DNA from: Candidatus Hodarchaeota archaeon
GTDB taxonomy: Archaea > Asgardarchaeota > Heimdallarchaeia > Hodarchaeales > Hodarchaeaceae
Assembly (NCBI GenBank): GCA_029856365.1
Contig: JAHQWW010000090.1
Location: forward strand, 1 to 15,184
Direction: 5' to 3'
Length of the DNA: 15,184 bases
In this document: positions 1-15,184 of the stretch, piece after piece
Position numbering within the stretch: the first letter of the stretch is position 1
Layout: the number at the start of each line of letters is the position of its first letter
The notes under the pieces: model-generated
What the model saw: only the letters and a program-made list of their open reading frames with translations
What the model was told of the DNA's origin: nothing
The model's database searches: none
Made by a program: the position numbers and the translations under genes

Positions 1-1058
1 AAATAAACGAGACCCCCTGTCGGATTATATTGGCCAGAAACTTCTTCAAATTGTCCTAGAAAAGCAACTAATGGATTATTAGGATTTTGCTTACCAATAA
101 TATTCCAGACCATTTGAGCGATAAAATAAATGTCAGCAAATACGGCAGAAGATAATATGACTGGGATATTTGACACGTAAAGCAGTTTAATAGGATAAGA
201 GGAACGGATCCCCTTGTATTGTGCATACAATATCGGTATTTCAATCCGCATCGATTCAAAATAGATGACAACGATGAATACAACAATGGTAGCGATTATT
301 GAAAGGAGAGACAGGGAAGGAAGATTCACATTCTCTGTAGGGTTATATCGGAAAAATAAAACATGAATTGCTTCGATTAATCCTCGTTGTGTTGCCCAAG
401 AATAAAATGAAAAAACAATCCCTCTCATCGAAATTACAGAGCGATCACCTGATCCTTCCCCAATTGTATGTAAGGCGAATAATCCCTGGAAAATTTGTAA
501 TCCGACACCTCCTGCGATGAACAAGGAGATTCCTGATCCTAAACCCCAACCCTTCTGAATCATCTCATCAAGAAGAATGATGATGATACCTGCAGCTAAT
601 AGTTGGGTAATTATAGCCAATTGATCTTCAAGGCTAAGGTTAGTTCCATAAGATCCTCCAATCAGGAATGCACTCGCCTCTATAATTGTCATTACTACTG
701 ACATAACCTTCTGTGTACCAGTATAGAGAGATCTTTCTTCTGGATCCCCCATATTTACACTGATAATTTTTGAACCCACTAAGATTTGCATAATGAGTCC
801 AGCTGTTACAATTGGTCCAATTCCAAGTTCAGCCAAAGAACCCTGAGTTGAGGCTGTAATTGTCCGCATAAAAGCAAGATGGTCAGCTCCTTCAGATTTA
901 GCACCAATAATTGGAGTTGATGCCATTACAAAATAAATGATAAGAGCTGCCAATGTCCAAACTACTTTTTCATTAAAATGAATCTCACGATTTGGTTTGA
1001 TAACTTCTGGAGTTATTGACATGAATGGCCTAATCATTTGAAGAAACTTAGAGGTCAT
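1..1058 (-). CDS. secY: Preprotein translocase subunit SecY/Sec61alpha (partial; 3' end runs off the window)
   Basis: Not in the ORF track. Manual translation from ATG at 1058 gives MTSKFLQMIRPFMSITPEVIKPNREIHFNEKVVWTL...GSLAELGIGPIVTAGLIMQILVG...LLDEMIQKGWGLGSGISLFIA...YPIKLLYVSNIPVIL...PTGGLVY, open to the window edge (352 codons). These are hallmark SecY/Sec61alpha motifs. Confidence 0.97.
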   Translation of the reverse strand, partial: MTSKFLQMIRPFMSITPEVIKPNREIHFNEKVVWTLAALIIYFVMASTPIIGAKSEGADHLAFMRTITASTQGSLAELGIGPIVTAGLIMQILVGSKIISVNMGDPEERSLYTGTQKVMSVVMTIIEASAFLIGGSYGTNLSLEDQLAIITQLLAAGIIIILLDEMIQKGWGLGSGISLFIAGGVGLQIFQGLFALHTIGEGSGDRSVISMRGIVFSFYSWATQRGLIEAIHVLFFRYNPTENVNLPSLSLLSIIATIVVFIVVIYFESMRIEIPILYAQYKGIRSSYPIKLLYVSNIPVILSSAVFADIYFIAQMVWNIIGKQNPNNPLVAFLGQFEEVSGQYNPTGGLVY

Positions 1059-1173
1059 GAAGAAAATCCCAGATAAATACTTTGATGAACTTATAACGTC
1101 TAAATTTTAAAGTTAAGCCGAATTATAAGCTACAACTGGTCATAACCCCTGCAATTTTCATTTTATAATTTTG

Positions 1174-1222
1174 TGGTACAATTACCATACTTCCTGTTGA
1201 TGTTGAAGACAGTAGTACAATT
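1174..1222. promoter_or_regulatory. Candidate operator: palindrome TGGTA-CAAT-TACCA with a repeated GTACAATT core
   Basis: Inverted repeat at 1174-1187. The 8-mer GTACAATT occurs at 1176-1183 and 1215-1222, between the divergent secY and HTH genes. Confidence 0.35.
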
Positions 1223-1232
1223 TCCTAACTAA

Positions 1233-1246
1233 CAGAAAGTATAAAA
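1233..1246 (+). promoter_or_regulatory. Archaeal BRE/TATA promoter for the HTH gene (probably leaderless)
   Basis: Purine-rich CAGAAAG followed by TATAAAA (1240-1246), ending 21 nt before the ATG at 1268. Confidence 0.55.
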
Positions 1247-1267
1247 GATAGTAATAACTAGTAAGAT

Positions 1268-2038
1268 ATGATGGTGGAGTCAATATTCAGTACGAGGAGA
1301 AGAAAGAAACTTCTGAGCTTATTAATTGTACTACTACTATTCCTATCTATTTTTCACTTTTTGGCTTTTACTCATATTTTCAATTCGAGTGAAAGTAAAA
1401 AGGTTTTAGTTCTTTCTGTAAATCCCCCTGATTATATTGAATACATGACAAACTATTATATTCAAAGTACCGATGGATTTGCTCAAATTAAAAAAGTATC
1501 AGAGACAATATCAAGTTTTTCGTTGCTCTTTTTCGGGAAAACTAGAATAGAAAACCACGAAAGTAAAAATCAAAATGGTGAGGCTCCGACAAATAGATCA
1601 ATCATTCTACAAACCATTGAACAAAGCCCTGGGATAACGCTTCGAGAAATTCAACGAGTAACTGGACTCGCTATAGGAGTTATTCAATATCATCTAAATC
1701 ATCTTGAAGCTGCTGGAATTGAGACATTAAGGTTGGGTCGATGTAAACACTTCTTTTTAGGTCAAGGTCACTTTTCATTAAAGGAAAAAAAGTGGTTTGC
1801 AGTTACCCAGAACAAGAATGTAAGAACAATATTACTGTTCTTAAGATCAAACGGGAACAAAGGCTTTCAAAAGGACATCGTCAATTTTGCAGGAATCAGC
1901 AAAGTTATGGTCTCCTATTACATCAAACAGCTTGAACAACTTGGAATAATCAATCGTAACCATCATAGATTGCAAATCACCGAGGATTACCTTTACATAA
2001 TGAATAAGGTCGTAAGCCTCAAGAATAAACTTTTTTGA
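1268..2038 (+). CDS. Membrane-anchored winged-helix transcriptional regulator (two wHTH repeats, archaeal COG3398-like)
   Basis: N-terminal RRRKK plus hydrophobic helix LLSLLIVLLLFLSIFHFLAF. HTH1: NRSIILQTIEQSPGITLREIQRVTGLAIGVIQYHLNHLE. HTH2: QKDIVNFAGISKVMVSYYIKQLEQLGII. Confidence 0.8.
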   Translation: MMVESIFSTRRRKKLLSLLIVLLLFLSIFHFLAFTHIFNSSESKKVLVLSVNPPDYIEYMTNYYIQSTDGFAQIKKVSETISSFSLLFFGKTRIENHESKNQNGEAPTNRSIILQTIEQSPGITLREIQRVTGLAIGVIQYHLNHLEAAGIETLRLGRCKHFFLGQGHFSLKEKKWFAVTQNKNVRTILLFLRSNGNKGFQKDIVNFAGISKVMVSYYIKQLEQLGIINRNHHRLQITEDYLYIMNKVVSLKNKLF

Positions 2039-2117
2039 AACTTGAATGAATCACTATCTTTATCTAAGAAGGAATAGATTGATAGAAACGTTCTTTAATA
2101 TCTTGAATTGCTTGGGA

Positions 2118-2501
2118 ATGCAAATGACTTGCCCAGACTCTTTAAAAGAATTACAGCTGCTAGTCGCGGACTTTATTAACCGTCGAAATTGGAAGAAATA
2201 TCATACTGTGAAAAATCTAGCAATGTCCATTTCGATCGAAGCTGCTGAGATAATGGAATTATTCCAATGGTTCACAAATGAAGAAGCAAGAGATCAGATT
2301 CAAACAGATCTTAATCTCAAAACAAAGCTTGAAGAAGAACTTGCAGATGTCCTAATTTATTGCTTAAGCTTAGGTTATCATACAAAAATTGATCTAAGCA
2401 AAGCAATACGGGAAAAACTAATCCAAAATGAGAAACGATTTCCAGTAGAAGTTGTTTCTGGGCGTTTAGGGCCATATACTCCTCATTCATCTAAAGAATA
2501 A
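2118..2501 (+). CDS. MazG-like nucleotide pyrophosphohydrolase (dCTP pyrophosphatase/DCTPP1-like)
   Basis: Motifs RNWKKYHTVKNLAMSISIEAAEIMELFQW, EEELADVLIY and KLIQNEKRFP. The track start is 2046, but the domain begins at the ATG at 2118 or 2124. Confidence 0.88.
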   Translation: MQMTCPDSLKELQLLVADFINRRNWKKYHTVKNLAMSISIEAAEIMELFQWFTNEEARDQIQTDLNLKTKLEEELADVLIYCLSLGYHTKIDLSKAIREKLIQNEKRFPVEVVSGRLGPYTPHSSKE

Positions 2502-2526
2502 AGAATGAGATTAGGTATTAGTAAGT

Positions 2527-3582
2527 TTAAGATTTCCGAAGATCATATTGTTTATAGGAGAATTCATGTTTTTGTATCCAGTTAATGATTCCTTTTAATG
2601 TGGTTTGGAGTGAGGTTCCTCTACCACCTGCTGCTCTTGGATGACCTCCACCAGAATATTTATTTGCTAAATAATCTACTCGACAACGTTCCAATACGGA
2701 CGCAGGTAGTTGGGAATTCACTCTTAATGAAATCCCAGTAAATTGTTTACCTGGGAAAAGTATACAGGATATTTTTACCCCTTTTTCAAACAAAGTACGA
2801 ACTAAAGCAGATGTCAGAATCTTTTCTTTCCCTTGGACAATTATAATTACATCTGCCATCTCAAGTTGATCTCCTAACTTAATACTCTTCTTCCTCAGTG
2901 TTCTCAACTTTATTATTCTTTGTTGATATATTTTGTTATTGAAAATTTCTAGTTCTTGGCTTGATAGGTCATGAAAAAGAGCAAGAACTTCTTCTATTGA
3001 TTCAGGAGTGCTGCAAATGTCATTTAAAAGCCATGCTTGCTCTTGACGTGTTGCTTCAAGGAATTTTAAAGCAATATTTTCCAGTGGAGGGACAGTAAAA
3101 CTAGCTGTATCAGTAATAGTTGTTAGATCAGCTAATAACTTTAAATTTTCAGGCAAGTGCTCATCAAAATGCTTTGATAACAGATAAGCCGTGCTAGGGG
3201 CATTTTCATCAAATAAAACCACTTCTGCGTTTTTAGCTATAGCTTTATTTGATAAATGATGATCACTGTAAAGAACAATTGATGAATCATTAAAGGGAGG
3301 AAGATCTATAATAGCTATCCAGTTTAACACTTTAAGAAATTCACCAAATTCTGGATGACGGATTTCTTGAAATCCTAGCGGGATGAATATTGCCTCTTGA
3401 AATTCTTTCAAGGATTTTAGTATAACGGCTGATACAACACCATCTGCGTCTGCAGCATGAAAAGCAACCTTGGGCTTAGGTAAAAGGGATAAGGAGTGAA
3501 TGAATCGGAAATTTCTCTTCATTTCATCTGAGAAGTTGGCAATAATACCCTCTAGGTCAAATAATAGGGCCATTACTTTCAC
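2527..3582 (-). CDS. DHH/DHHA1-family phosphoesterase (NrnA/oligoribonuclease-like)
   Basis: Motifs HAADADG (DxD), IIDLP, YSDHH (DHH), APSTA, ISLR and C-terminal GGGHPRAAG. Confidence 0.85.
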   Translation of the reverse strand: MKVMALLFDLEGIIANFSDEMKRNFRFIHSLSLLPKPKVAFHAADADGVVSAVILKSLKEFQEAIFIPLGFQEIRHPEFGEFLKVLNWIAIIDLPPFNDSSIVLYSDHHLSNKAIAKNAEVVLFDENAPSTAYLLSKHFDEHLPENLKLLADLTTITDTASFTVPPLENIALKFLEATRQEQAWLLNDICSTPESIEEVLALFHDLSSQELEIFNNKIYQQRIIKLRTLRKKSIKLGDQLEMADVIIIVQGKEKILTSALVRTLFEKGVKISCILFPGKQFTGISLRVNSQLPASVLERCRVDYLANKYSGGGHPRAAGGRGTSLQTTLKGIINWIQKHEFSYKQYDLRKS

Positions 3583-3621
3583 TTATTTCAGTCTATTTTG
3601 CATTTTCTGTACAATGTAAGA

Positions 3622-4284
3622 TCACAGAGTAATTATTCGATTGAAAGGGATCTTTCTTTTCTCAAGAAAATTTAAAGCTAAAATTGTGTTTCCTAAACTA
3701 TTCTTATGGTGAGAATCGGAACCTATAGAGTACCAATATTCATCATCAAGGTAATTAAACCATTTATCCATATAATTTCCATAACCTGTATTCAATTCAA
3801 CAATGATTTCAAATTCAGATATTTTGCTAAACACATAATCCACTTTTGACTCTGGTACACGTGTAAAACGTGTGTGAGCTAAACCCACATTGAATTTTGG
3901 ATTCTTTTTTTTGAAGTTTAAAACCTGCTGGAATTTTTTTTCCCAAGATGATTGAGTAAAAACATATTCAAATAAAATTAAATCCCATTGAAAGTCTTTG
4001 AGGGAATCTAAAAAATCAATCGAGGAAAGATCAACCTCTATACCGATAAAAATCTTTGTAGGTAACGATTCATTCATTCGTATTTCATCAAGTGTTGCAT
4101 AATACTCTTCAAGTTCCATAACCGAAAGAGCGGGTTTCCAAGTAGAATAGTGATCTGTTATGCAGACTTCTTGAATTCCTCTTTCGACAGCAGCTAAAAT
4201 CATATCTCGAGGACTAAAAAACCCATCAGAGAAAGATGTATGGATGTGATAATCAATGATTCTAGTCATTTGTTTTCTATCCAT
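3622..4284 (-). CDS. PHP-domain phosphoesterase
   Basis: Motifs DYHIHTSFSDG, ITDH, GIEVD, LAH, ELN and GSDSH, the full PHP metal-binding set. Confidence 0.88.
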   Translation of the reverse strand: MDRKQMTRIIDYHIHTSFSDGFFSPRDMILAAVERGIQEVCITDHYSTWKPALSVMELEEYYATLDEIRMNESLPTKIFIGIEVDLSSIDFLDSLKDFQWDLILFEYVFTQSSWEKKFQQVLNFKKKNPKFNVGLAHTRFTRVPESKVDYVFSKISEFEIIVELNTGYGNYMDKWFNYLDDEYWYSIGSDSHHKNSLGNTILALNFLEKRKIPFNRIITL

Positions 4285-4450
4285 TTGTTGTGTAAAGTAT
4301 TTTATCTTTTCGGGGTAAACACTATTTTCAGATACTCTGATCTTAATGGTTATATCTTAAACACAAGACGTAAATAAAGATCCACACATTTGTTTTTAAT
4401 GCCATGGTCTGATTATTTGGAGTTGTAGAACGATTTCTAAACTGGCAATC

Positions 4451-5209
4451 TTGATAGATCCTAACAAGGGTGAAGCGACTGAACGGATGTTTCAGGCATT
4501 AAAAGGAATATTAACTGAATGCGAGGATTCGACAAAACTTCCTCTAGAGATCTGGGTTGGGGATAGTTCTGAGATTTATAGAGGAGTACATAGCTATTTA
4601 AAGAGACTTCACCAATTAGAAATCCAACTTCCCCCTGTAGTTATATTTCCTGGTCATCCTCTACAAATTTCGTCTTTGGCAGACTTCATTCAAATGCCTA
4701 CTCTTCTTAATACATATAGGTTTAGGATTAAGGTGGTACTCAAGTTAGGGAAGAAATATCATTGGTTGATGAAATGGTGTCGTAGACCTTTAGGTAAACA
4801 TTGGCCCATTGATCGTAAATATGGATATATGGTTCTTAGCCCTCAGTCATCTGTCGGTAAAAAGCTTCACGCTAAAGAATTGACCGATGATCAGGCATAT
4901 GAAGAAATAATTTACAAATGGAGGGAATATTGGTCAATGATCTATCTCGAAGCAGGCTCAGGGCGGTTTGGTGCTTCAATAGCAGGGCGATTGGATCTAG
5001 TAAGGAAGGTGAAAAAAATTGCTCATGAAAAAAAGGCCATTTTAATCACAGGAGGAGGTATCCGAACAAAAGTTCAAGTTGAGGATCTGGTTAAGGCGGG
5101 TTCTGATTTGATTGTAATATCGTCTGTTTTAGAAAAATCAGAAGATCCCAAAACTTTAATGGAACAATTTCTTGAAGCAGTTAGCAAAACTATGGAAAAA
5201 TCTTTATGA
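4451..5209 (+). CDS. Geranylgeranylglyceryl-phosphate synthase/PcrB-family prenyltransferase (divergent; true start uncertain)
   Basis: Motifs (KLAIL)IDPNK, VIFPGHPLQISSLAD, YGYMV, YLEAGSG, TGGGIRT and AGSD. The in-frame sequence upstream of TTG 4451 continues the beta-1 strand. Confidence 0.82.
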   Translation: MIDPNKGEATERMFQALKGILTECEDSTKLPLEIWVGDSSEIYRGVHSYLKRLHQLEIQLPPVVIFPGHPLQISSLADFIQMPTLLNTYRFRIKVVLKLGKKYHWLMKWCRRPLGKHWPIDRKYGYMVLSPQSSVGKKLHAKELTDDQAYEEIIYKWREYWSMIYLEAGSGRFGASIAGRLDLVRKVKKIAHEKKAILITGGGIRTKVQVEDLVKAGSDLIVISSVLEKSEDPKTLMEQFLEAVSKTMEKSL

Positions 5210-5225
5210 TTATCCTTAATAAAGG

Positions 5226-5405
5226 TTAATACTTCAGATTTTTTAGTTTTTTACTAGTTTTTTTATTAAAAGGAGGTTTAATCTCTTTCATAATTCTGAG
5301 GTCAAACTTTGAATGAACACCCAAAATAGGGAGAAGACCAGTTCTTCTCCTTTTAAGCTTTTTCTTTCTTTCTGATGGAAGCTTATATTTCTTTTCATGC
5401 TTCAA
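5226..5405 (-). CDS. Putative 59-aa highly basic small protein (unannotated)
   Basis: TTG at 5405 to TAA at 5226 encodes MKHEKKYKLPSERKKKLKRRRTGLLPILGVHSKFDLRIMKEIKPPFNKKTSKKLKNLKY. A GAGGT RBS lies 6 nt upstream (5416-5412). The ORF fills an otherwise empty 320-bp gap. Confidence 0.5.
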   Translation of the reverse strand: MKHEKKYKLPSERKKKLKRRRTGLLPILGVHSKFDLRIMKEIKPPFNKKTSKKLKNLKY

Positions 5406-5530
5406 ACTAAGACCTCATTCTTGCATTTCTATATTCTTACTGTCCAGTAATGAATGATAAATTTTCGATTTATATTATTCTAATTAAATTTATAATATTT
5501 TTTATTTCGGAAGTATATAACTCCTAATAG

Positions 5531-6064
5531 TTATTCTAACTTTCTTCCATATTCAAATAAATTACCAGCGTGATAGATATCTAATTGAACCTTAGATAAA
5601 GGAGTGGCTGCTTTTAAGGATTGATTATTAGAAATATTATCGATTTTTCCTGTTTTTAAATTCACTTTAATACTATCACCTGTTTCAATATTATCCGACA
5701 TGATTTCTGGAGCCATCATAAGAGGTAGGCCCGAGTTAATAGCGTTCCGTTTATAGATCGCTCCAAAAGACTCGCCAATGATCATTTGAACACCGAGGGC
5801 TTGGAGACAATCAACAGCTTGTTGTCTGCTACTTCCAGCTCCAAAGTTCATTCCAACAACTAGAATATCACCTGATTTTGCCTTTTTAGAGAAATCTTCC
5901 CATCCTTGGAGATTACCAAAGCAAAATTGGCCCATTTCATTGATGTCAGTGATATGTAAATGCTTATTATGAAAAATCATGTCCGTGTCTATATCATCGA
6001 TGGCTTTCCCATTTTTATCCTTTATTACCATCGCTCTACCTTCAAGAATAATTTCTTTTTTCAT
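5531..6064 (-). CDS. Aconitase-family small (swivel) subunit, LeuD/HacB-type, pair A
   Basis: Motifs DDIDTDMIF, GDILVVGMNFGAGSSRQQA and ESFGAIYKRNAINSGLP. GAGGTGA RBS upstream. Confidence 0.92.
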   Translation of the reverse strand: MKKEIILEGRAMVIKDKNGKAIDDIDTDMIFHNKHLHITDINEMGQFCFGNLQGWEDFSKKAKSGDILVVGMNFGAGSSRQQAVDCLQALGVQMIIGESFGAIYKRNAINSGLPLMMAPEIMSDNIETGDSIKVNLKTGKIDNISNNQSLKAATPLSKVQLDIYHAGNLFEYGRKLE

Positions 6065-6086
6065 TTTTTCACCTCAGATCTTATTA

Positions 6087-7340
6087 TTATAATTCTGGCA
6101 CTGATATCTCACCAGCTAAGGCAGTTGCAGCAGCAGTTGCTGGAGAAGCTAGATATGTGTCTCCAGAACCTTGTTTCCCAGCAAAATTACGATTTCCAGT
6201 AGAAACCTGTACTTCGCCCTTTCCAGTCATCCCGATCTGACCTGCAGCACAACCACCACACCCTGGATTGGTAATGATAGCCCCAGCTTCATATAGAATG
6301 TTGATAAGACCATCCTTCAATAATTGGCCATAAACTTCTTTTGTAGCTGGAACAATCTTCATCATAACGTTTCGATGAACCTTCTTATTCTTGAGTATTT
6401 TTGCAACGATAGAGATATCTTCATATCGACCATTGGTACAACTAGCGACAACTACAGAGTCAACTTGTGTTCCAGCAACCTCAGCAACGGGTTTAACATG
6501 TGCTGGGGATGGTGGTAAGGCAATCAATGGTTCAAGATCTGAAAAATCGAATTCTAATGTTTCAATATACTCCACATCAGTATCTGATTCATATACAGGG
6601 AAATTATTACCACTTCGTTCTTTACAGTACTGAACAACCTGATCATTTGGAGGGATCAGACCAATAATACCTCCCATTTCAGTAACCATAGATGCAAGAG
6701 TAATTCTTCCCCCTAAATCAAAGGAGTCAATGGTGCTTCCATAAAATTCTATGGCTTTTCCTAGGGCTTTTTTTGAACCAATCTGCTGAAGAACTCCTAA
6801 AGTAACATCCTTCGCGAAAGAATTATGTGCTGGGGTTCCTTCAATCGTTATATTCATTGATTCTGGAACTTCAAACCAAGTCTTGCCAGTTTTAAAGGCA
6901 AAAGCAATGTCCTGATCACCCATACCTTGTCCAAAGGATCCTATAGCCCCAAGAATATTCAAATGTGAATCTGTTCCTACAACGGTGTTACCAGGAACAG
7001 CTATCCCTTTTTCAATCATAATATGAGAACCAATACCTGCATCAACATCATAAAGATGTTCTGGGGGCAAATTTTTACGTGCAAAAATTCTTGCTATATG
7101 TTGGTTCTCTGCATAACCAATTGTTTTGGCTGGTGCAACACAATCAAATGTGAAAAAAGTCTTCAAAGGATCAGCAATCTGTGGTTCATTTGGATAATAT
7201 TTCTCTAAATTTTTAACAACGTTGGCTCCACCAAAATCTCGGGCTGAACGGACATCGATTTCCATCCAAACAATATTACCTGGTATTACATCTTCTGTAG
7301 TGTGATCTGCAATAATTTTTTCGATGATTGTACTTCCCAT
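6087..7340 (-). CDS. Aconitase-family large [4Fe-4S] subunit, LeuC/HacA-type, pair A
   Basis: Motifs TIIEKI, GTDSH, SCTNGR, PGCGGC, STGNRNFAGKQG and YLASPATAAA. The likely start is ATG 7340, with AGGTG upstream; the track starts at GTG 7352. Confidence 0.93.
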   Translation of the reverse strand: MGSTIIEKIIADHTTEDVIPGNIVWMEIDVRSARDFGGANVVKNLEKYYPNEPQIADPLKTFFTFDCVAPAKTIGYAENQHIARIFARKNLPPEHLYDVDAGIGSHIMIEKGIAVPGNTVVGTDSHLNILGAIGSFGQGMGDQDIAFAFKTGKTWFEVPESMNITIEGTPAHNSFAKDVTLGVLQQIGSKKALGKAIEFYGSTIDSFDLGGRITLASMVTEMGGIIGLIPPNDQVVQYCKERSGNNFPVYESDTDVEYIETLEFDFSDLEPLIALPPSPAHVKPVAEVAGTQVDSVVVASCTNGRYEDISIVAKILKNKKVHRNVMMKIVPATKEVYGQLLKDGLINILYEAGAIITNPGCGGCAAGQIGMTGKGEVQVSTGNRNFAGKQGSGDTYLASPATAAATALAGEISVPEL

Positions 7341-7400
7341 CGGTTCAAACACCTTTTCAATCCTTATTTTTTGTATATTTCTAAATTTCTATAATTAATA

Positions 7401-7420
7401 TGTTCTCAACAAAAAGAACA
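7401..7420. promoter_or_regulatory. Inverted repeat TGTTCT-N8-AGAACA in the divergent promoter region
   Basis: Arms at 7401-7406 and 7415-7420, flanked by a further AATTTCT (7384-7390) / AGAAATT (7424-7430) pair. Confidence 0.3.
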
Positions 7421-7547
7421 CAAAGAAATTACATACCCATAACAATATAATTATATAGGAGGAGATTAGACTTGTATTTTGAATATATTACTATGAAGTT
7501 GTAGAATTCGAGGAAGTATCTCTTTAAAGAATGAGGATGATACAAAA

Positions 7548-7760
7548 GTGACGTTGGATATCAGAGAGGATGTTGATCTTCATAATAAGGCCGAACTAGA
7601 ATTAGTATGTCCATGGTGTCATACTCAAACTATCACGGCTACTGTTAATCATAGAACACTTCGTTTGAGATGCACTCAATGTTATATGGATGCCTTTGTG
7701 ACTCGTATCCCCCGAAATAAAAAATTGGATGATTATATTTCTCGCCGCTTGATTTCTTGA
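7548..7760 (+). CDS. Small CxxC-17-CxxC zinc-ribbon protein (Elf1-like spacing)
   Basis: CPWC...CTQC followed by LDDY. GAGGATGA RBS-like sequence upstream of the GTG start. Confidence 0.7.
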   Translation: MTLDIREDVDLHNKAELELVCPWCHTQTITATVNHRTLRLRCTQCYMDAFVTRIPRNKKLDDYISRRLIS

Positions 7761-7887
7761 TGATATTCTTTTAATAATAATCATTTTTTAGGTAATAACA
7801 AATAATGCAAGATCTAAAGCCCTGTAAATGTCAACAATAAAGATTTTAATTCTGACACCTATTTTGAAGTTCAAGAGGAATTAAGTT

Positions 7888-9147
7888 ATGACTGGGCAAA
7901 CATTAATACAGAAAATTCTTGCACAAGCTGCAGGAAAAGAGGAAGGCGTAACCGAGAATGAGATAGTTTTTGTTTCTCCCCATATGATTCTAAGTCATGA
8001 CAATTCTGCTGCAATTTCAAAGACCTTTTATGAGATAACTGGACCTAATGGGAAAGTGTGGGATCCAAACAAGATTTTCATTGATCTAGATCACGCTGTT
8101 CCTCCACCTGACTATAAAAAAGCAGAGAATCATAAAATAATTAGGGAATTTGTAAAAAAGCAAGGAATAAAATATTTTTACGATTGTGGAACGGGAATTT
8201 GCCATCAAGTTCTACCTGAGGAAGGATTAGTACCACCAAATGTTGTGATTCTTGGCTCTGATTCACATACTACGACACACGGCGCATTTGGTGCTGCTGG
8301 TATACCAATAGGTCGGACTGAAACAGCTTCTGTATGGGCTATTGGACAAACGTGGCTTAAGGTTCCTGAAACATTAAAAATAACCTTTGATAACTTCCTA
8401 CCTAAGGACGTTTATGCTAAAGATGTTATATTAGATGTAATTGGTAGAATTTCCGCAGACGGAGCCACATACAAATCTATCGAGTTTTATGGCAAAACAA
8501 TTGATAAGATGTCAATAAGTGACAGGATGACTATCAGTAACATGTCGGCAGAGGCTGGAGCTAAGGCTGGTATCTTTCCAGTTGATAATGTAACCGATAC
8601 TTGGAATAAACAATTTAATTTTCAATATGAAAAATTAGAAGCGGATGAAGATGCGGATTACGAACAAGAACTCAGTTTTGATCTCACAAACTTGACACCA
8701 CGGGTGGCCCAACCTCATAAAGTTGATAATGTTGTTCCAGTAGAAGATCTACCAAGAACAAAAGTGGATGTTGCCCTTCTTGGTACTTGTACAAACGGTA
8801 GAATTGAGGACCTCCGAATTGCATCAGATATACTAAGAGAGAAACAGATTAATCCTGATGTTAGGCTGCTCATTTATCCAGCTTCGAGGAGTATACTTCA
8901 TCAGGCAATTAAAGAAGGATTATTAGAAATTTTGGTTGAAGCTGGGGGTCAAATTGGGGTTCCAGCTTGTGGTCCGTGTTTGGGAGAGTATGGAGGAACA
9001 TTAGCTCCAGGTGAAATAGCAATTTCTACAGCGAATCGTAATTTTAAAGGAAGAATGGGAACGAGAGATGCTGAAATTTACTTAGCAAATCCTGCAGTGG
9101 TCGCCAGATCGGCGATCGCGGGGTATATCACCAATGAAGAGGGTTGA
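7888..9147 (+). CDS. Aconitase-family large [4Fe-4S] subunit, homoaconitase-like, pair B
   Basis: Motifs [46 protein letters not shown] and [19 protein letters not shown] upstream. Confidence 0.94.
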
Positions 9148-9149
9148 AA

Positions 9150-9656
9150 ATGAAATTCAAAGGTAAGATATGGATTTTCCCTGATGATGATATCAATACT
9201 GATGTAATATTCCCGGGTAAATATACTTATGATCCCCTAACTCCAGAACAAATGGCAAAGCATGCTATGGAAGATTATAATCCGAATTTTGCAAAAGAAG
9301 TTGCTAAAGGTGACATCATCGTAACAGGAAAGAATTTTGGTTGTGGGAGTAGTCGTGAACAAGCTGTAATTTCTTTGGCAAAAGTTGGTGTAAGTTGTAT
9401 CATTGCTAAGTCTTTCGCACGGATTTTTTACAGAAACGCTATAAATCAAGCCCTCCCGCTCGTTATCTCTTTTGATTGTTCTGATTACGTCATCCGAAAT
9501 AAATACGCACTAAAAGACAAAGAAATTTCAGTAGATTTTGATATAGGTATCATTAAACTTCATGATGAAGAATTTCATTTTCCTAAACTTGATAGTCAAG
9601 CATTAGAAATCTTCAAAGCTGGAGGATTGGTTGATTATACAAAAAATCGTCTCTGA
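9150..9656 (+). CDS. Aconitase-family small subunit, homoaconitase-like, pair B
   Basis: Motifs [28 protein letters not shown] and [13 protein letters not shown]. Abuts the large subunit (start TTG 9144 or ATG 9150). Confidence 0.93.
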
Positions 9657-9686
9657 GGATTAAAAAAAGGAAAGAAGAAGAATGCA

Positions 9687-10964
9687 TCACTTTTTCTCTT
9701 TTTTAGGAGTAATGTCGATTAACTCATACTCTCGTGAGCCAATACCTTGCGCATGAGCAGCTGCAAGTTGGGTCTCAGCGATAATGGGTCTAGATTCAGC
9801 ATCTACCCAAAGACTAAATAGACCAAGTTTCATGCTATCTGGTTCCATTGCTTCAGGAATAGGGTCAATTTTTGTGTCAGAATATTCCAAACCAGTTTCT
9901 GCAGGGGATTCAGGTATCCCAGGTGCTTTTGTCACAAGATCAACACAGGCTTGATCAATAGCAATTGGATCATTTGAGTATAGAATCCCTTGATCTGGGA
10001 CGAGAAGATTTCCACCTGCACTCATACAGTCACAATGACTTGTAATATCTAATGCAATATTGATATATCGCAGTCTTTCTTCCCCATCACTATTTATTCC
10101 TTTCACTACTCCCGCTGCGTTGTCCATCATTCGTTCTACTTGTTCAACACTGGGAATTCGACGCTTCACAGCGAAAATCCGTTTCTTTTCTAGCTCCTTA
10201 GCAGGAATTCCAAAATGGCATACAGCAAAACACATTGTACAGGCAATACATTTCTCTGGGTAATGTACAATTTTCTGATTCTCATCTAGCGAGAGAGCTT
10301 GTGTTGGACAGATTCTAATACATTTCCCGCAGGCAGTACAATTCTCTGGTCTTTTGACATAAATATTCTCTCCACCACCCCAGTGAGCTCCACCTTTTCC
10401 CTCATTACCAACACAACCAATTCCCAATTGCTTGAGAGCACCTCCAAAACCTGCACCATCATGGCCCTTAAATCGTGATACAATTAGGGTTTTATCTGCT
10501 ATTCTCAAACCCATTGCCAACGCAACTTCTTTAATGTACTTCCCTTTTTCATTATGTACTTTGAATACCTCGGTTCCTACGATACCATCATCCATGACAA
10601 CTGGAGCATTCATAGACCCAATGTTAAAGCCATTCCTATTCGCTAAAAGTACATATCCAGGGCCATTCGACATAGTCTCTTCTTTGTGCCGTTCATCCCA
10701 AAATAAGCCAACTCCCTCGCAAACCCAGGGAATGCCTCCCGCTTTACGCACTAAATCGACGACTTTCCTAATATACATGGGCCGAAGATGTCTGGTTTGA
10801 TTACGACTGCCAAAATGAGTCTTTATCGCGACTATTTCTCCTTTTTTTATCCAGTCCTTTATTCCAACTTCTTTATGATTCCATAATTGCTCTAAACGAT
10901 CTATAAGCGAATCTCCAATCCCCAATCCTTTGGTATTGACCATAAACACTTTTGTTTTACTCAT
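9687..10964 (-). CDS. DUF362-domain Fe-S protein with an inserted 2x[4Fe-4S] ferredoxin domain
   Basis: Motifs VAIKTHFG, FKGHDGAGFGGALKQLGIGC, CTACGKCIRICP, CIACTMCFAVC, SHCDC and DPIAIDQA. Start is ATG 10964 or GTG 10973. Confidence 0.88.
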   Translation of the reverse strand: MSKTKVFMVNTKGLGIGDSLIDRLEQLWNHKEVGIKDWIKKGEIVAIKTHFGSRNQTRHLRPMYIRKVVDLVRKAGGIPWVCEGVGLFWDERHKEETMSNGPGYVLLANRNGFNIGSMNAPVVMDDGIVGTEVFKVHNEKGKYIKEVALAMGLRIADKTLIVSRFKGHDGAGFGGALKQLGIGCVGNEGKGGAHWGGGENIYVKRPENCTACGKCIRICPTQALSLDENQKIVHYPEKCIACTMCFAVCHFGIPAKELEKKRIFAVKRRIPSVEQVERMMDNAAGVVKGINSDGEERLRYINIALDITSHCDCMSAGGNLLVPDQGILYSNDPIAIDQACVDLVTKAPGIPESPAETGLEYSDTKIDPIPEAMEPDSMKLGLFSLWVDAESRPIIAETQLAAAHAQGIGSREYELIDITPKKEKK

Positions 10965-11166
10965 AATTCTCACAACGAAATATAGTTTGAGTTCTAAATA
11001 CGAAAACCTGTGAATTGCCGTTATTTAATTAGAGTTAAATAATGATGGTATGTAGGTAATCCTCTTGATAAGGAAAACATCCAAAATAACAATAATTAAT
11101 TCCCTTAGTAACATTTGAAAGGGAATGAACTAAGTTTTCTGATAACAGAAATTCAAGTGAATAACC

Positions 11167-11424
11167 ATGTCAAACCTAAAAATTGAAGTAATCAAAATTC
11201 TTGAAGCAGGAAAATGTAATTTTGGTCATAAAAAGGGCGACACATTTGAATACCCAGAGGAAAAGGGTAAAATTTGTTCTGCTGCCTGGCACACGATGTA
11301 TCCTTATATCTGTGGACTTCAATATGGAGCAAGCTACCCATGGGAAAAAGATGCTAATAGCATTATTGTATGTTGTCCTGATTACAAGAATCCCGTTGTT
11401 TTTAAGATCATACGGAACGAATGA
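11167..11424 (+). CDS. Small Cys-containing protein, TIGR04076-like
   Basis: Pattern KIEVIKI..GKCNFGHKKGDTF..ICSAAWHTMYP..VCCPDYKNPVVFKI matches this family as recalled. Confidence 0.8.
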   Translation: MSNLKIEVIKILEAGKCNFGHKKGDTFEYPEEKGKICSAAWHTMYPYICGLQYGASYPWEKDANSIIVCCPDYKNPVVFKIIRNE

Positions 11425-11987
11425 AGACCGATAAGGAGTATTTCCGTATTCATATAGATTTATATATAGACTCACTCGTTTATGTACAAAATTCGCTTTT
11501 GGGAAAGTTTATTCTAGTGCCTCTTGACAAAGAAAAGTTAGATGCATTATTAGAGGAGATAAAACGTTTAGAAGAAAAACCAGTCAGAAAACGACGAGTT
11601 ATGAAACATTATTCGATCCCAATGACTGACATCTCCATTTCTCCCACAAAGAAAGAATTTCTCCTAGATACAGAAAAAAAAGTCTATTTCTCACTAAATC
11701 ATTACTATAAGTTAGTGATGCTCGCAATTGAAGACACCGCAACAGCTTTTGAGATTTGGATAAAGGGTGTTTTACCCTTACTACTAAGGCGAAATGGTCT
11801 TGATAGAGAAGAGTGGGAAAGAATTAGTGATCTTGGGGATAACGATCCCCAACTCGAACCAGAATTAACCGAGGATTGGAAAATTTTTTTCCAAGAGACA
11901 ATTCAACAGGGTTTGATAGATAATGAAATCTTGGCTTTAATTAATGAAGGAAAACTAAGAGTTGAAAGAATGCGAAGAGAACAATAA
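11421..11987 (+). CDS. Hypothetical protein
   Basis: 188-aa ORF with an ATGA start/stop overlap with the upstream gene and protein-like composition. No motif recognised. Confidence 0.75.
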   Translation: MKTDKEYFRIHIDLYIDSLVYVQNSLLGKFILVPLDKEKLDALLEEIKRLEEKPVRKRRVMKHYSIPMTDISISPTKKEFLLDTEKKVYFSLNHYYKLVMLAIEDTATAFEIWIKGVLPLLLRRNGLDREEWERISDLGDNDPQLEPELTEDWKIFFQETIQQGLIDNEILALINEGKLRVERMRREQ

Positions 11988-12072
11988 CAGGCGTATTCCT
12001 CTTCAGCTAGTAAACAAATTTTCGAAAAAAACCAAAAAAAGTTGAAATACAACCCAAAGTTGCAGGTTCACT

Positions 12073-12999
12073 ATGTCTTTTGAAACACAGGAAATAAGCT
12101 GTGGTAAATGTACAGTAGATGTTCACCACCACTTTTTTGCCAAAGAGAGTCTTCCTGCTTTTAAGCGAATGATTCCCAATGCTGAAAAAGCTGTAAAGAA
12201 CAATCCTGAAATGCATGCTTTCATTGATGCGATGCCTACAATTGAAGAAAGAGCGAAGTTAACTGTTTCAGAAATGAATAAATCGAACGTGGATGAAGTT
12301 TTACTGATGTCATTTACTGGCGATATAGAAACAGTCTATACAGCTCATAAGATGTATCCAACAAAATTCACTGGTTTGATTCCCTTCATAGATCCACGAA
12401 TTGATTCTCCAGAAGTATTGGAAGAATACAAGGAGAAGGGCGCTGTTGCAATTAAATTTTATCCTGGTTCATGGGGAGCTGCTTTTGATTTTAATGATGA
12501 ACGTGTTTTTCCATACCTAAAGAAGTGCCTTGAATTGGAATTGACACCTATGATTCATTTTGGGGTCATGAAAGGAGGATTTGGTAATTTGGATCAATGG
12601 CCAGCTAATCCACTGGAATTAAGGCCCTGGCTTCAACACCCTGATTTACAAGAGCAAAAGTATATTATTGCACATTTTGGAGCAGGATACTTACGTGAAA
12701 TCTTCTTAATGGCTTATTCCCATTTAGAACAGTTGCTTGTAGACACGAGTGGATCAAATGACTGGATTAATTGGTCACCATTTAATAACCTCACGCAGGT
12801 ATTTGAAAAAACTATAATTGCGTTAACACCACAACATATTCTTTTTGGAACTGACTCTGGTCGTCTTACAATGCGGCATGATGTTACGTTACGACAAAAA
12901 GGTATTTTGGAAGATCTAGTAACTAGAAAAATAATAACAGATGAAGATCGCTGGGATATTTTAGGCAACAACACAAAGAGATTATTGTTTTCCGACTAA
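12073..12999 (+). CDS. Amidohydrolase-superfamily protein (Amidohydro_2-type TIM barrel)
   Basis: Motifs VDVHHH, AIKFYP, PMIHFG, IIAHFG, VDTSG and ILFGTDS, with C-terminal ILGNN. Confidence 0.88.
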   Translation: MSFETQEISCGKCTVDVHHHFFAKESLPAFKRMIPNAEKAVKNNPEMHAFIDAMPTIEERAKLTVSEMNKSNVDEVLLMSFTGDIETVYTAHKMYPTKFTGLIPFIDPRIDSPEVLEEYKEKGAVAIKFYPGSWGAAFDFNDERVFPYLKKCLELELTPMIHFGVMKGGFGNLDQWPANPLELRPWLQHPDLQEQKYIIAHFGAGYLREIFLMAYSHLEQLLVDTSGSNDWINWSPFNNLTQVFEKTIIALTPQHILFGTDSGRLTMRHDVTLRQKGILEDLVTRKIITDEDRWDILGNNTKRLLFSD

Positions 13000-13183
13000 A
13001 AGAAAAATAACAGGTCGAAAAACTACGAAGGGAGCTTAAGTATCAAATTTTTCGGTTAAAAAATATGAAATCTCTGGCATTTAACAATAATCAAGTTATT
13101 ATTGCACCCATATGAATGTTTTTATTCATTCTTCAGCTATTAAATTCTTTGTCTAAGCCTCTCATTTGTTATGAGAGATCTGC

Positions 13184-14815
13184 TTGAGATTGCAGGTTTT
13201 GATAGTCTTGTCTTTCTTGAAAAAAACTGATTGGTTGCATATTAATAATAAAACTATAACCAAGGAGAAGTTGAGAAATAGTATAGTTTTATTCAGCCTT
13301 GTAAATCTCATTTGGTTCATATTCCGTACAGGTTCAAAACCTACCAGAATAGTGTATCCGTGTCAGCGAGCAGCTGTGAATAATATTTCAGTTTCGTTAA
13401 GTTCTTTGGTTCCACTCTCAATAACCACATCTTTCTTAACAACACTAAAGACCTTCTTGATCAAAAATAGGTACTTAATTCTACCAATTCTACTGGTTGG
13501 AATAATCAGTGGTGAGGTATTCTTAAGTACGGTTACTCCAAATCCCTATCAAGAAATTCGATTATCAATTGAATCCAAAAATGCTTCTACTTTTCCAGCT
13601 TCAGATATCTATGTGCTGAACGGACAAACAATTGCGCATATAAGTAATTTAATCAATTTAATGAGTTTAAACGATTTATTCTTTTATAAATCAAGTGTTG
13701 TGGGAGAAATTCAGGGACCTAAAGGTTTAATTGCTTGTGATGATGTTGTGTTGCTTAAAATCAATTCACAATGGGACGAGCGTGGGGGAACTAACACTGA
13801 TCTCCTAAATGAACTTATACTGGCCATTGTCGATCACCCAGATGGTTTCATAGGAGAAATTATTGTTGCTGATAACGGGCAAGGTTTTGGAAGTATGGAT
13901 TATACAAAAAACAACGCTGAGAATAATTCACAATCAACTCAAGTCGTTGTTGATATGTTCTTGTCTATGTACAATATTTCCACTTATAGTTGGGATGATA
14001 TCAGAAGTAAAAGCGTTGAAGAGTATTCTGAAGGAGATATGACGGACGGATATATAGTCTATGATACTGCGGATCCTGAAACAGGGATTTACGTCTCTTA
14101 TCCTAAGTTTAAAACGGAATTTGGAACTGCCATTAGTTTTAAACACGGTATATGGAACGGAACTGGATACGAAAAACGACTGAAAGTAATTAATTTACCT
14201 GTTTTAAAATCACACTCTAACTACGGAGTTACTGCATCCGTAAAGAATTACATGGGCGTCCAAACAGAAGTATTGAATGGAGGGCTAGCTAATGGGCATA
14301 GAACCATTGCAACTGGAGGGATGGGGACACTAATGTTGGAATGTGGACTACCAACTCTTAATATTATTGACGCGATCTGGGTAAACGCCAACCCCTCACC
14401 TGATTTATATTGTGGGCCATCAACGAGCTATTGGATGGCTACAAGAGTTAATATCCTTATAGCTGGACTAGATCCTGTTGCCCTCGATTATTGGGCTGCA
14501 AAATATGTCCTCGTGCCAACTGCATCCTCTATTGGTTATGATGACACTCAGAGTTTACAGCCTGATAAAACTGTGAGAGGTCGCTTAGAAGAAGCATTTG
14601 GTGTTTGGCTAGAACTGACAAAAGATGAAATGCTAAGAAGTGGGTGTAATGTTACAAGTGATGAAAACAGAATGAATGTCGTAACGAATTCTACCTCAAG
14701 TAGCTCTAGCTCATCAAGCTCACCTATCTCTGGTTTTGAGGTGATAATATCAGTATTGAGCCTTGCTATAATCCCTCATTTATTTTCTCGAAGACGGAGA
14801 AAACTATCTACTTAA
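13184..14815 (+). CDS. Membrane/cell-surface-anchored DUF362-domain protein with Ser-rich linker and GFE-type C-terminal anchor
   Basis: Motifs KPTRIVYPCQRAA, VLLKINSQW, INLPVLKSH..GVTASVKNYMG, IIDAIW and DPVALD. N-terminal hydrophobic helices. C-terminus is STSSSSSSSSSPISGFE, a hydrophobic helix, then RRRRK. The true start may be a later TTG. Confidence 0.8.
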   Translation: MRLQVLIVLSFLKKTDWLHINNKTITKEKLRNSIVLFSLVNLIWFIFRTGSKPTRIVYPCQRAAVNNISVSLSSLVPLSITTSFLTTLKTFLIKNRYLILPILLVGIISGEVFLSTVTPNPYQEIRLSIESKNASTFPASDIYVLNGQTIAHISNLINLMSLNDLFFYKSSVVGEIQGPKGLIACDDVVLLKINSQWDERGGTNTDLLNELILAIVDHPDGFIGEIIVADNGQGFGSMDYTKNNAENNSQSTQVVVDMFLSMYNISTYSWDDIRSKSVEEYSEGDMTDGYIVYDTADPETGIYVSYPKFKTEFGTAISFKHGIWNGTGYEKRLKVINLPVLKSHSNYGVTASVKNYMGVQTEVLNGGLANGHRTIATGGMGTLMLECGLPTLNIIDAIWVNANPSPDLYCGPSTSYWMATRVNILIAGLDPVALDYWAAKYVLVPTASSIGYDDTQSLQPDKTVRGRLEEAFGVWLELTKDEMLRSGCNVTSDENRMNVVTNSTSSSSSSSSSPISGFEVIISVLSLAIIPHLFSRRRRKLST

Positions 14816-14899
14816 GAGAATGTATAGAAGTAAAATTAACAGAAAGAAAAATAAACTGGAATATCCGTAACTGATTCTATAAATGAATATGTCCTTAAA

Positions 14900-15184
14900 T
14901 TATTGATAAGGAGTAATCACATTGATTACATCTTCAAAATCAATTCCCAGCTCCTTAATTTTCGCAATTGTTGGACACCCTTGTTTACTCCATCCTCGGC
15001 GTTCGTAGGCAGCATCTTGAAGTCTAGCGTAATTTTCTTCGCGATACTTTCGTAAGATTCTCAATTTTTCTTCCGTGGTTTTTCCAGAGGGATCTTCTCC
15101 AATCTCTTCCTTGATTTGTTTATCATATCGCTCATATCGACTCTCATATTCTTCTTTTGTTACAGGCCCCATTGCTCTATAAGG
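14900..15184 (-). CDS. Aldehyde:ferredoxin oxidoreductase family protein, C-terminal end (partial)
   Basis: The frame is open to the window edge (PYRAMGPVT...). The C-terminal motif AYERRGWSKQGCPTIAKIKELGI is typical of tungsten AOR-family enzymes. Confidence 0.8.
   Translation of the reverse strand, partial: PYRAMGPVTKEEYESRYERYDKQIKEEIGEDPSGKTTEEKLRILRKYREENYARLQDAAYERRGWSKQGCPTIAKIKELGIDFEDVINVITPYQ

Follow-up and report, generated by a model that had tools for sequence, protein, structure and literature searches.

Two divergent aconitase-family heterodimers of a Hodarchaeales archaeon belong to a conserved gene module that may interconvert citrate and 2-oxoglutarate

The DNA analyzed here, referred to below as the window, covers positions 1 to 15,184 (15,184 nucleotides) of contig JAHQWW010000090.1 from the assembly GCA_029856365.1 of a Candidatus Hodarchaeota archaeon (Heimdallarchaeia, Hodarchaeales). 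The assembly comprises 4.24 Mb and is 83.6% complete, and all genome-wide absences given below are bounded by that completeness. The subject is two gene pairs at positions 5531-9656, pair 1 and pair 2, each encoding the large (L) and small (S) subunit of an aconitase-family enzyme, and the gene module to which they belong. The core of this module consists of an HD metalloprotein, a dehydrogenase (IDH2), the canonical heterodimer encoded by pair 2 and the rewired, His-less heterodimer encoded by pair 1. The genes of the locus were called as open reading frames (ORFs), those of the four subunits with additional support from Pfam and NCBIfam models:

5531-6064, minus strand: P1S, small subunit of pair 1, LeuD-like, 177 aa
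6087-7352, minus strand: P1L, large subunit of pair 1, a His-less LeuC-like [4Fe-4S] hydro-lyase
7548-7760, plus strand: zinc-ribbon gene, 70 aa, GTG start, two CxxC pairs (CPWC-x17-CTQC)
7888-9147, plus strand: P2L, large subunit of pair 2, 419 aa
9144-9656, plus strand: P2S, small subunit of pair 2, 170 aa

The probable start of P1L is the ATG at 7340, which gives a product of 417 aa and matches the length of database cluster P0002. The ORFs and domain matches agree with the first-pass annotation of this DNA, made from the sequence without database searches, in finding two complete, non-identical pairs of large and small subunits that are transcribed divergently on either side of a real 70-aa zinc-ribbon gene. 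Both pairs scored above cut-off for Pfam PF00330 (Aconitase) and PF00694 (Aconitase_C) and for the NCBIfam subfamily models PRK00402, hacA_fam and LEUD_arch, and both carry the CTNGR motif with the CxxC pair, DSH and GSSR that mark the two-subunit LeuCD/HacAB-type branch of the aconitase superfamily. P1L and P2L are 35% identical over 419 aa (E 2e-83) and P1S and P2S are 44% identical over 97 aa, and from these values the pairs are old paralogues, not the products of a recent duplication. The earlier observation that a synthase and a decarboxylating dehydrogenase are missing from the window was also confirmed, the window ORFs including neither an HMGL-like synthase nor an Iso_dh gene.

Database entries label both pairs as '3-isopropylmalate dehydratase' or 'homoaconitate hydratase', and the broad LeuCD/HacAB subfamily models recognize the two, as would be expected if an ordinary leuCD (leucine/isoleucine) and an ordinary hacAB (lysine/coenzyme B) were neighbors by chance. 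All four subunits fell below every equivalog cut-off, however. Against the LeuC/LeuD equivalogs (TIGR02083/TIGR02084 or TIGR00170/TIGR00171) P1L scored 343 and P2L 444, with a cut-off of 610.7, and P1S scored 118 and P2S 147, with a cut-off of 245.9. Against the methanogen HacAB models (NF040615/NF040604/NF040625) the large subunits scored 337 (P1L) and 462 (P2L) with a cut-off of 550, and the small subunits 119 (P1S) and 157 (P2S) with a cut-off of 230; the fungal/Thermus homoaconitase models (TIGR00139/NF010629) gave 295 for P2L (cut-off 530) and 128 for P2S (cut-off 229). The specificity loops of the small subunits, HNKHLHI in P1S and a conserved PGKYTY in P2S, are neither the YLVY of Methanocaldococcus jannaschii LeuD nor the YLRT of its HacB. 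No match to the LeuA/homocitrate-synthase (HMGL-like) family, ketol-acid reductoisomerase (IlvC), IlvD or dihydrodipicolinate synthase (DapA) was found in the source genome, and nothing credible was found there for LysX, the LysX_arch model giving chance-level matches only. Most holders of both pairs in the same genus, some of them 93-99% complete, likewise lack HMGL-like genes, and in those Heimdallarchaeia that have a LeuA-family gene it is a third LeuC paralogue that adjoins it.

A quick maximum-likelihood tree (IQ-TREE) placed pair 1 on a long stem with a Shimodaira-Hasegawa-like approximate likelihood ratio test (SH-aLRT) value of 100 and pair 2 in a clade of its own with a value of 89; LeuC proteins linked to LeuA/LeuB formed another clade (99) and fused 640-aa aconitases yet another (100). 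The M. jannaschii, Thermus and fungal reference proteins were not rows of this tree, and the relation to them was read from hidden Markov model and PDB scores. Neither pair thus lands among the LeuA/LeuB-linked LeuC proteins. Together with the missed cut-offs, the distinct loops, the absent partner genes and the co-occurrence and synteny of the two clades across phyla described below, the tree sustains the first-pass view that these are not ordinary leuCD plus hacAB. The chance-neighbor reading is already largely refuted, and we assign it a nearly negligible probability. A role in leucine or isoleucine synthesis was rejected on the lack of any LeuA-family, IlvC or IlvD match in the genome. Lysine synthesis via alpha-aminoadipate was rejected for the source genome on the lack of LysX; DapA was not found there either. 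The homocitrate/lysine setting in which the pairs had first been placed is accordingly disfavored, the genome having no detectable homocitrate synthase, LysX or DapA and the operon partners in other genomes being enzymes that cleave citrate.

Pair 2 has the features of a canonical enzyme. P2L holds all of the expected motifs (SHD, LDH, CHQ, DSHT, NMxxE, CTNGR, CGPC and NRNFKGR), the pair has all three His-carboxylate pairs, and P2S carries GCGSSRE in addition to its loop. Of the fungal homoaconitase and bacterial LeuC models, the former gave pair 2 the higher score. Similar genes (51-57% identity) that occur without pair 1 form a separate group in Anaerolineae, where they stand beside LeuA-family synthases and a dehydrogenase. 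Since its nearest relatives are linked to synthases, the pair 2 lineage derives from classical enzymes of the homoaconitase/isopropylmalate isomerase type.

Pair 1 departs from the canonical active site. In classical aconitase the His-carboxylate pairs are Asp100-His101, Asp165-His147 and Glu262-His167 (pig aconitase numbering). Compared with the M. jannaschii structures, P1L retains the three cluster cysteines, the Asp-Ser-His motif, the Glu and the first Arg of NRNF, and P1S retains the catalytic Ser/Arg motif GSSR. The other motifs of the large subunit are altered as follows:

canonical HD: RD in P1L
canonical DH: DC in P1L
canonical CHQ: GSH in P1L
canonical DSHTxTH: DSHLNIL in P1L
canonical NMxxE: SMxxE in P1L
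canonical NRNFxGR: NRNFxGK in P1L (second Arg replaced by Lys)

By the established aconitase numbering, the changed positions include the equivalents of His101 and His147, replaced by Cys and Ser, respectively, so that pair 1 lacks the classical set of three His-carboxylate pairs. The rewired set is kept in 120 homologues from Asgard archaea, Anaerolineae, KSB1, Eisenbacteria, Thermoplasmata and other groups, only the Cys position (DH to DC) varying, about 10 of them having Leu or Thr there; a deep Heimdallarchaeia branch, family f3, carries the same residues. The HN..L part of the P1S loop and GSSRQ are kept in 45 orthologues. Across the two domains pair 1 shows 54-64% identity, tighter than pair 2.

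The best relatives with solved structures are the M. jannaschii enzymes LeuCD (PDB 4KP1/4NQY, 3VBA) and HacAB (4KP2, 2PKP), with which the window pairs share the two-subunit archaeal-type architecture and fold; P2L scored 377 and 360 bits and P1L 303 and 259 bits against them. The likeness extends to the cluster cysteines, the Asp-Ser-His motif and the small-subunit GSSR. The window pairs differ from these enzymes in failing the equivalog models, in their HNKHLHI and PGKYTY loops and, for pair 1, in the lack of two catalytic His residues. They also have no LeuA/AksA partner, and the partners in module operons cleave citrate and are not HMGL-type synthases.

Gene content, synteny, co-occurrence, clade structure and active-site conservation were observed directly, as follows. 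Relatives of pair 1 were found in at least 579 species-representative genomes, and for the synteny counts ORFs were called and clustered in the best 80 loci of these. A P2 orthologue (49-63% identical to P2 of the window) lies within the same locus in 21 of the 80, representing at least nine phyla. An Iso_dh gene is present in 33 of the 80 loci, an HD-domain gene in 19, a short gene of the citrate synthase family in 20, and genes resembling the alpha and beta subunits of succinyl-CoA synthetase in 15 and 13, respectively. The recurrent gene order is CcsA-CcsB-CCL-HD-P2L-P2S-IDH-P1L-P1S, in which CcsA and CcsB correspond to citryl-CoA synthetase (CCS), CCL is citryl-CoA lyase and IDH is the dehydrogenase of the isocitrate dehydrogenase family; it was seen in Chloroflexota, Acidobacteriota/Aminicenantes, Bacillota, Gemmatimonadota, Planctomycetota, Myxococcota, Krumholzibacteriota, Thermotogaceae and Thermoplasmatota. 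The citrate-cleaving part of the operon varies, being CCS plus CCL, a CcsB-CCL fusion with CcsA, or CitE/CitF. Where P1 was unlinked from P2, a P2 orthologue (50-54%) was found elsewhere in the genome in five cases out of five, and in the three of these whose P2 neighborhood was identifiable P2 stood directly after the HD gene, with CCL or CitE/CitF.

In Heimdallarchaeia of family f3 all parts form one operon, ordered HD-IDH2-P1L-P1S-P2 (L and S fused)-CcsA-CcsB/CCL fusion. The source assembly has HD and IDH2 adjacent on contig C179 and CcsA with a CcsB-CCL fusion on contig C169; in close relatives HD and IDH2 share a contig with pair 2, at a distance of 7-22 kb. A survey of 41 Heimdallarchaeia genomes (thresholds of at least 55% identity for P1 and at least 59% for P2) found both pairs in 25, P2 alone in one and P1 alone in none, and roughly a dozen genomes, some of the same genus, held neither. 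The phyletic pattern of IDH2 and HD tracks the pairs in this group with the exception of two genomes (G002 and G013), and all 16 occurrences of the CcsB-CCL fusion are in module holders. Among 121 Anaerolineae genomes, 12 carry both pairs, two P1 alone and one a close P2 alone. The dependence is one-sided, P1 being almost never found without P2. These results bear out the suggestion of a module, made at first from one locus, with the two pairs co-occurring and syntenic across many phyla.

Because the pairs co-occur and often share one operon, the large and small subunits might combine across pairs into a mixed-subunit or hetero-tetrameric enzyme, as the first-pass annotation had proposed as one option. 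Natural gene fusions point the other way. P1L-P1S fusions were found in Krumholzibacteriota and relatives (L059:5946-7868, L069:132-2072, L085:10007-11917 and L094:10088-11917), the C-terminal part being 49-53% identical to P1S as against 37-39% to P2S, and a P2L-P2S fusion was found in Heimdallarchaeia family f3 (L127:7521-9422). The fusions always unite the subunits of one pair and never cross pairs, so that each pair is its own enzyme; the pairs are, moreover, often unlinked in the genome. The mixed-subunit proposal is disfavored on these grounds, and we consider it very improbable. A higher-order complex of the two heterodimers is conceivable.

The CCL of the module operons scored above the NCBIfam citryl-CoA lyase cut-offs and gave 215 bits against the citryl-CoA lyase chain PDB 6HXP, presumably the Hydrogenobacter thermophilus enzyme; CcsA gave a weak match to a citrate-binding domain. 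CitE and CitF lie inside the module in a Thermoplasmatota locus and in an Acetothermia genome, the CitF proteins being 43-44% identical to E. coli CitF (citrate lyase alpha). In Krumholzibacteriota, genes for a KorAB-like 2-oxoacid:ferredoxin oxidoreductase and for malic enzyme stand just upstream of the module. The source genome has two CitF genes, one at C169:3598-4941, convergent with CcsA/CcsB-CCL, and one at C179:18568-20112, 8 kb from HD-IDH2; CitE and CitD were not found in it by tblastn. In the reductive tricarboxylic acid (TCA) cycle of the Hydrogenobacter type, citryl-CoA synthetase and citryl-CoA lyase take the place of ATP-citrate lyase. The bacterial module operons likewise carry CcsA, CcsB and CCL, and in the module, too, one classical step would be divided between two enzymes. 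The module differs in occurring mostly in heterotrophic anaerobes and Asgard archaea and in that some lineages exchange CCS/CCL for CitE/CitF. To our knowledge, no split aconitase step has been described in systems of the Hydrogenobacter type.

IDH2 is a beta-decarboxylating dehydrogenase of the group that comprises NAD-dependent isocitrate dehydrogenase (NAD-IDH) and homoisocitrate dehydrogenase (HICDH). Its best model match is the AksF2 homoisocitrate dehydrogenase, and its PDB scores are equal for NAD-IDH and Thermus HICDH. The HD protein is an intact HD metalloenzyme, for which a structure model with a predicted local distance difference test (pLDDT) score of 90.7 was obtained. It had no PDB match by sequence, and the protein atlas returned only 'HD domain' clusters.

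We read the window as encoding the two hydro-lyase components of this conserved four-function module, with the pairs cooperating in a parallel branch from citrate to 2-oxoglutarate; our confidence in this reading is about evenly divided for and against. The module would interconvert citrate and 2-oxoglutarate via cis-aconitate and isocitrate, in a branch that runs parallel to, or replaces, the route through monomeric aconitase and NADP-dependent isocitrate dehydrogenase. Pairs 1 and 2 would form separate heterodimers that work jointly on the isomerization, possibly with one half-reaction each. Pair 1 would then interconvert citrate and cis-aconitate, and pair 2 cis-aconitate and isocitrate, the latter being assigned to pair 2 because it is related to homoaconitases that are confined to the secondary-alcohol half of the reaction. 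The link to citrate-cleaving systems suggests operation in the reductive or cleaving direction, for example from amino-acid-derived 2-oxoglutarate to acetyl-CoA and oxaloacetate. We infer the substrate, the division of labor and the direction of flux from gene context and from protein relationships.

A split of half-reactions between the pairs is plausible from the ancestry of pair 2, the altered site of pair 1 and the fungal analogy, and given that ancestry and that site a division of labor is the most economical reading. In fungal lysine synthesis two aconitase-family enzymes share one isomerization (PMC3556520), whereas methanogen HacAB is given as performing both halves (Drevland et al. 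2008, as cited in PMC11237513). The Lys4 system of fungi and the LysTU system of Thermus, each working with an aconitase, would resemble the module in dividing one isomerization between two aconitase-family enzymes and in the synthase-linked relatives of pair 2. They are unlike it in that the partner here is a dedicated, His-less LeuCD-like heterodimer and not a housekeeping aconitase, and in that homocitrate synthase and the genes for lysine synthesis via alpha-aminoadipate were not found in the source genome and the model cut-offs were missed. Monomeric and fused aconitases (AcnA; the PRK07229 type of 640 aa) belong to the same superfamily and probably carry out the same overall reaction as the pairs, and the source genome has both kinds, on C121 (934 aa) and C151 (644 aa). 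The fused enzymes form a separate clade, as given above; the pairs are made of two subunits, and pair 1 differs in its catalytic residues. No monomeric aconitase was found in three module genomes (G042, G043 and G045).

Several observations weigh against this reading. The source genome and many other module genomes also carry a fused aconitase of the PRK07229 type and a second isocitrate dehydrogenase, so that a role on citrate would be redundant unless direction or regulation differs. The citrate-isocitrate substrate is drawn from context only, namely from the neighboring CCS/CCL, CitE/CitF, IDH family, KorAB and malic enzyme genes. IDH2 has Ile at the position of Asn115 of isocitrate dehydrogenase (ICDH), and its conserved SPIV substrate loop is neither ICDH-like nor like that of Thermus HICDH. 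The enzymes nearest to pair 2 and IDH2 stand beside LeuA-family synthases, a setting that a substrate of the homocitrate type fits equally well. P2-like enzymes occur without P1, and the co-occurrence counts (25 of 41 Heimdallarchaeia, 12 of 121 Anaerolineae) are patterns and not statistics, related genomes not being independent samples. In the Hodarchaeales genomes G002 and G013, which belong to the genus of the window, the pairs stand head to head but IDH2 and HD were not found. A fold search with the HD protein returned generic HD hydrolases only, with YhaM on top, from which no specific role follows.

An HMGL-like gene and one more LeuC-like paralogue are present in both G002 and G013, where the pairs may be wired differently. 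Beside the conventional isocitrate dehydrogenase and the fused aconitase of the source genome, a C-terminal fragment of a citrate-synthase-family protein is cut by the contig edge (C151:16-621); it had no match to the CcsB-CCL protein at E 1e-10 and may be a citrate synthase.

The ambiguous IDH2 loop and the equal NAD-IDH and HICDH scores keep a substrate of the homocitrate type as a live rival. The same module would then elongate 2-oxoglutarate to 2-oxoadipate, or run in reverse from 2-oxoadipate to acetyl-CoA and 2-oxoglutarate, with a CCS/CCL or CitEF-type enzyme standing in for homocitrate synthase. Dehydration of homocitrate would fall to pair 1 and hydration of cis-homoaconitate to pair 2, after the pattern of Thermus and fungi. 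The proximity of pair 2 and IDH2 to the Anaerolineae enzymes found with LeuA-family synthases, the AksF2 match and Thermus HICDH score of IDH2, its Ile in place of Asn115, as in HICDH, the conventional aconitase and IDH set already present in the genome and the fungal precedent (PMC3556520) all speak for it. However, no lysine pathway of the LysX or DapA type was found in the source genome, so that 2-oxoadipate would have no obvious use. In addition, CCL is close to the citryl-CoA lyase 6HXP and CitF to the alpha subunit of E. coli citrate lyase, the KorAB and malic enzyme neighbors indicate the TCA cycle, and the reverse route would consume ATP, NADH and CO2. We regard the homocitrate version as decidedly unlikely.

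The altered site of pair 1 can also be taken to mean that no isomerization is shared at all, pair 2 being the complete isomerase of the module and pair 1 catalyzing a different chemistry on another intermediate (a hydration, an isomerization or a step after the dehydrogenase). Without the His101 and His147 equivalents a classical aconitase mechanism would be crippled, and the substrate pocket of P1 has acquired an Arg (ARDF). P1 always adjoins IDH while P2 adjoins HD and CCL, and P2-like enzymes without P1 occur in synthase-linked clusters. Set against these points, P1 retains the minimal hydro-lyase set (cluster ligands, Asp-Ser-His, Glu, the first Arg and the small-subunit Ser-Arg), and no extra pathway enzyme consistently accompanies it to make or use another substrate. 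Separate chemistry for pair 1 appears unlikely to us on this balance.

Returning to the cooperating pairs on citrate, the most specific form of that reading would be a 'split aconitase', in which a dedicated His-less LeuCD-like dehydratase acts on citrate, a tertiary alcohol, and an equally dedicated homoaconitase-like enzyme hydrates cis-aconitate. With the HICDH-like dehydrogenase, the HD protein and CCS/CCL or CitEF, these enzymes would make up an alternative, possibly ancient branch between citrate and 2-oxoglutarate in hundreds of anaerobic species of bacteria and archaea, Asgard archaea, which are relatives of eukaryotes, among them. We put this forward tentatively, as a possibility that is more doubtful than not.

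Full-text literature searches on Asgard archaea, LeuCD, homoaconitase, two-subunit aconitases, Dehalococcoides, CCS/CCL and citrate lyase with reductive carboxylation turned up no description of the twin module; PMC11237513 mentions LeuCD/aconitase fusions in general terms only. The module is apparently undescribed, as both a new subfamily of the aconitase family and a new module architecture. Annotation of both pairs as enzymes of leucine or lysine synthesis credits amino-acid biosynthesis to organisms that apparently lack it, and it masks a central-carbon module that at least 579 species-level genomes carry. Should citrate and 2-oxoglutarate indeed be joined by a second route of two enzymes, the reductive and oxidative TCA potential of uncultured anaerobes and Asgard archaea needs to be reread, the known 'split' TCA steps (CCS/CCL; carboxylase/reductase) gain a third case, and pair 1 would be a natural aconitase-family enzyme operating without the canonical histidines. 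The natural P1 and P2 fusions are handy single-chain targets for structure determination.

The zinc-ribbon gene between the pairs does not belong to the widespread module. Among 5.8 billion proteins it has 16 homologues (73-87% identity), all of them Hodarchaeales-like, and in five orthologues substitutions number 28-42 at third codon positions as against 7-15 at second positions; the homologues and the predominance of third-position changes indicate that the ORF is a real gene. In the closest relatives it is invariably flanked by the two operons, and no identifiable homologue was found at that place in more distant module holders. Being confined to one Hodarchaeales subgroup, the gene is, from its sequence distribution, a local, lineage-specific insertion between two operons. 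Its product resembles Elf1/ELOF1 in having a CxxC-x17-CxxC ribbon followed by D-x-Y. It scored below the gathering threshold of the Elf1 family (Pfam PF05129; 14.8 bits vs 29.8, E 0.032), and a canonical Elf1 is encoded separately in the genome (C33:19574-19792), with which it gave a BLASTP E of 6e-4. A predicted model of moderate quality (pLDDT 64) had ELOF1/Elf1 as its top seven Foldseek matches (E 0.015-0.07, TM about 0.5). The product is a paralogue that is weakly Elf1/ELOF1-like and restricted to this lineage. The protein would be the second of its kind in the genome, with an acidic N-terminus, placed between two metabolic operons.

Two conserved elements were located in the intergenic DNA around this gene:

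7425-7457, divergent intergenic region: AT-rich element, GAAATTACAT...ATATAATTATAT, nearly invariant in four genomes in which the flanking DNA has diverged
7832-7879, plus strand: TATA-like stretch AATAAAGATTTTAAT and GAGGA ribosome-binding site, conserved, upstream of P2L

The ATATAATTATAT part of the first element is a perfect palindrome and resembles a TATA box, and the element lies midway between the P1L and zinc-ribbon starts, about 85-90 nt from each; it is a candidate for a bidirectional archaeal promoter or a regulator site. The second element makes a separate promoter for pair 2 probable.

The rest of the window encodes SecY, a helix-turn-helix regulator, a MazG-like protein, DHH and PHP proteins, a PcrB-like protein, two DUF362 proteins, an Amidohydro_2 protein and an AFOR fragment. 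The PcrB-like gene (4451-5209, plus strand), a weak member of the PcrB/GGGP-synthase family, adjoins pair 1 and keeps this position in relatives, with no evident functional tie to the module. It had prompted consideration of an AcnX-type phosphomevalonate dehydratase, which was rejected, as both pairs carry PF00330/PF00694 and not AcnX domains. The DUF362 genes (9687-10973, minus strand, and 13184-14815, plus strand) flank the Amidohydro_2 gene (12073-12999) and the AFOR C-terminal fragment at the contig end. The first of them carries an inserted 2x[4Fe-4S] ferredoxin domain and stays beside pair 2 in relatives.

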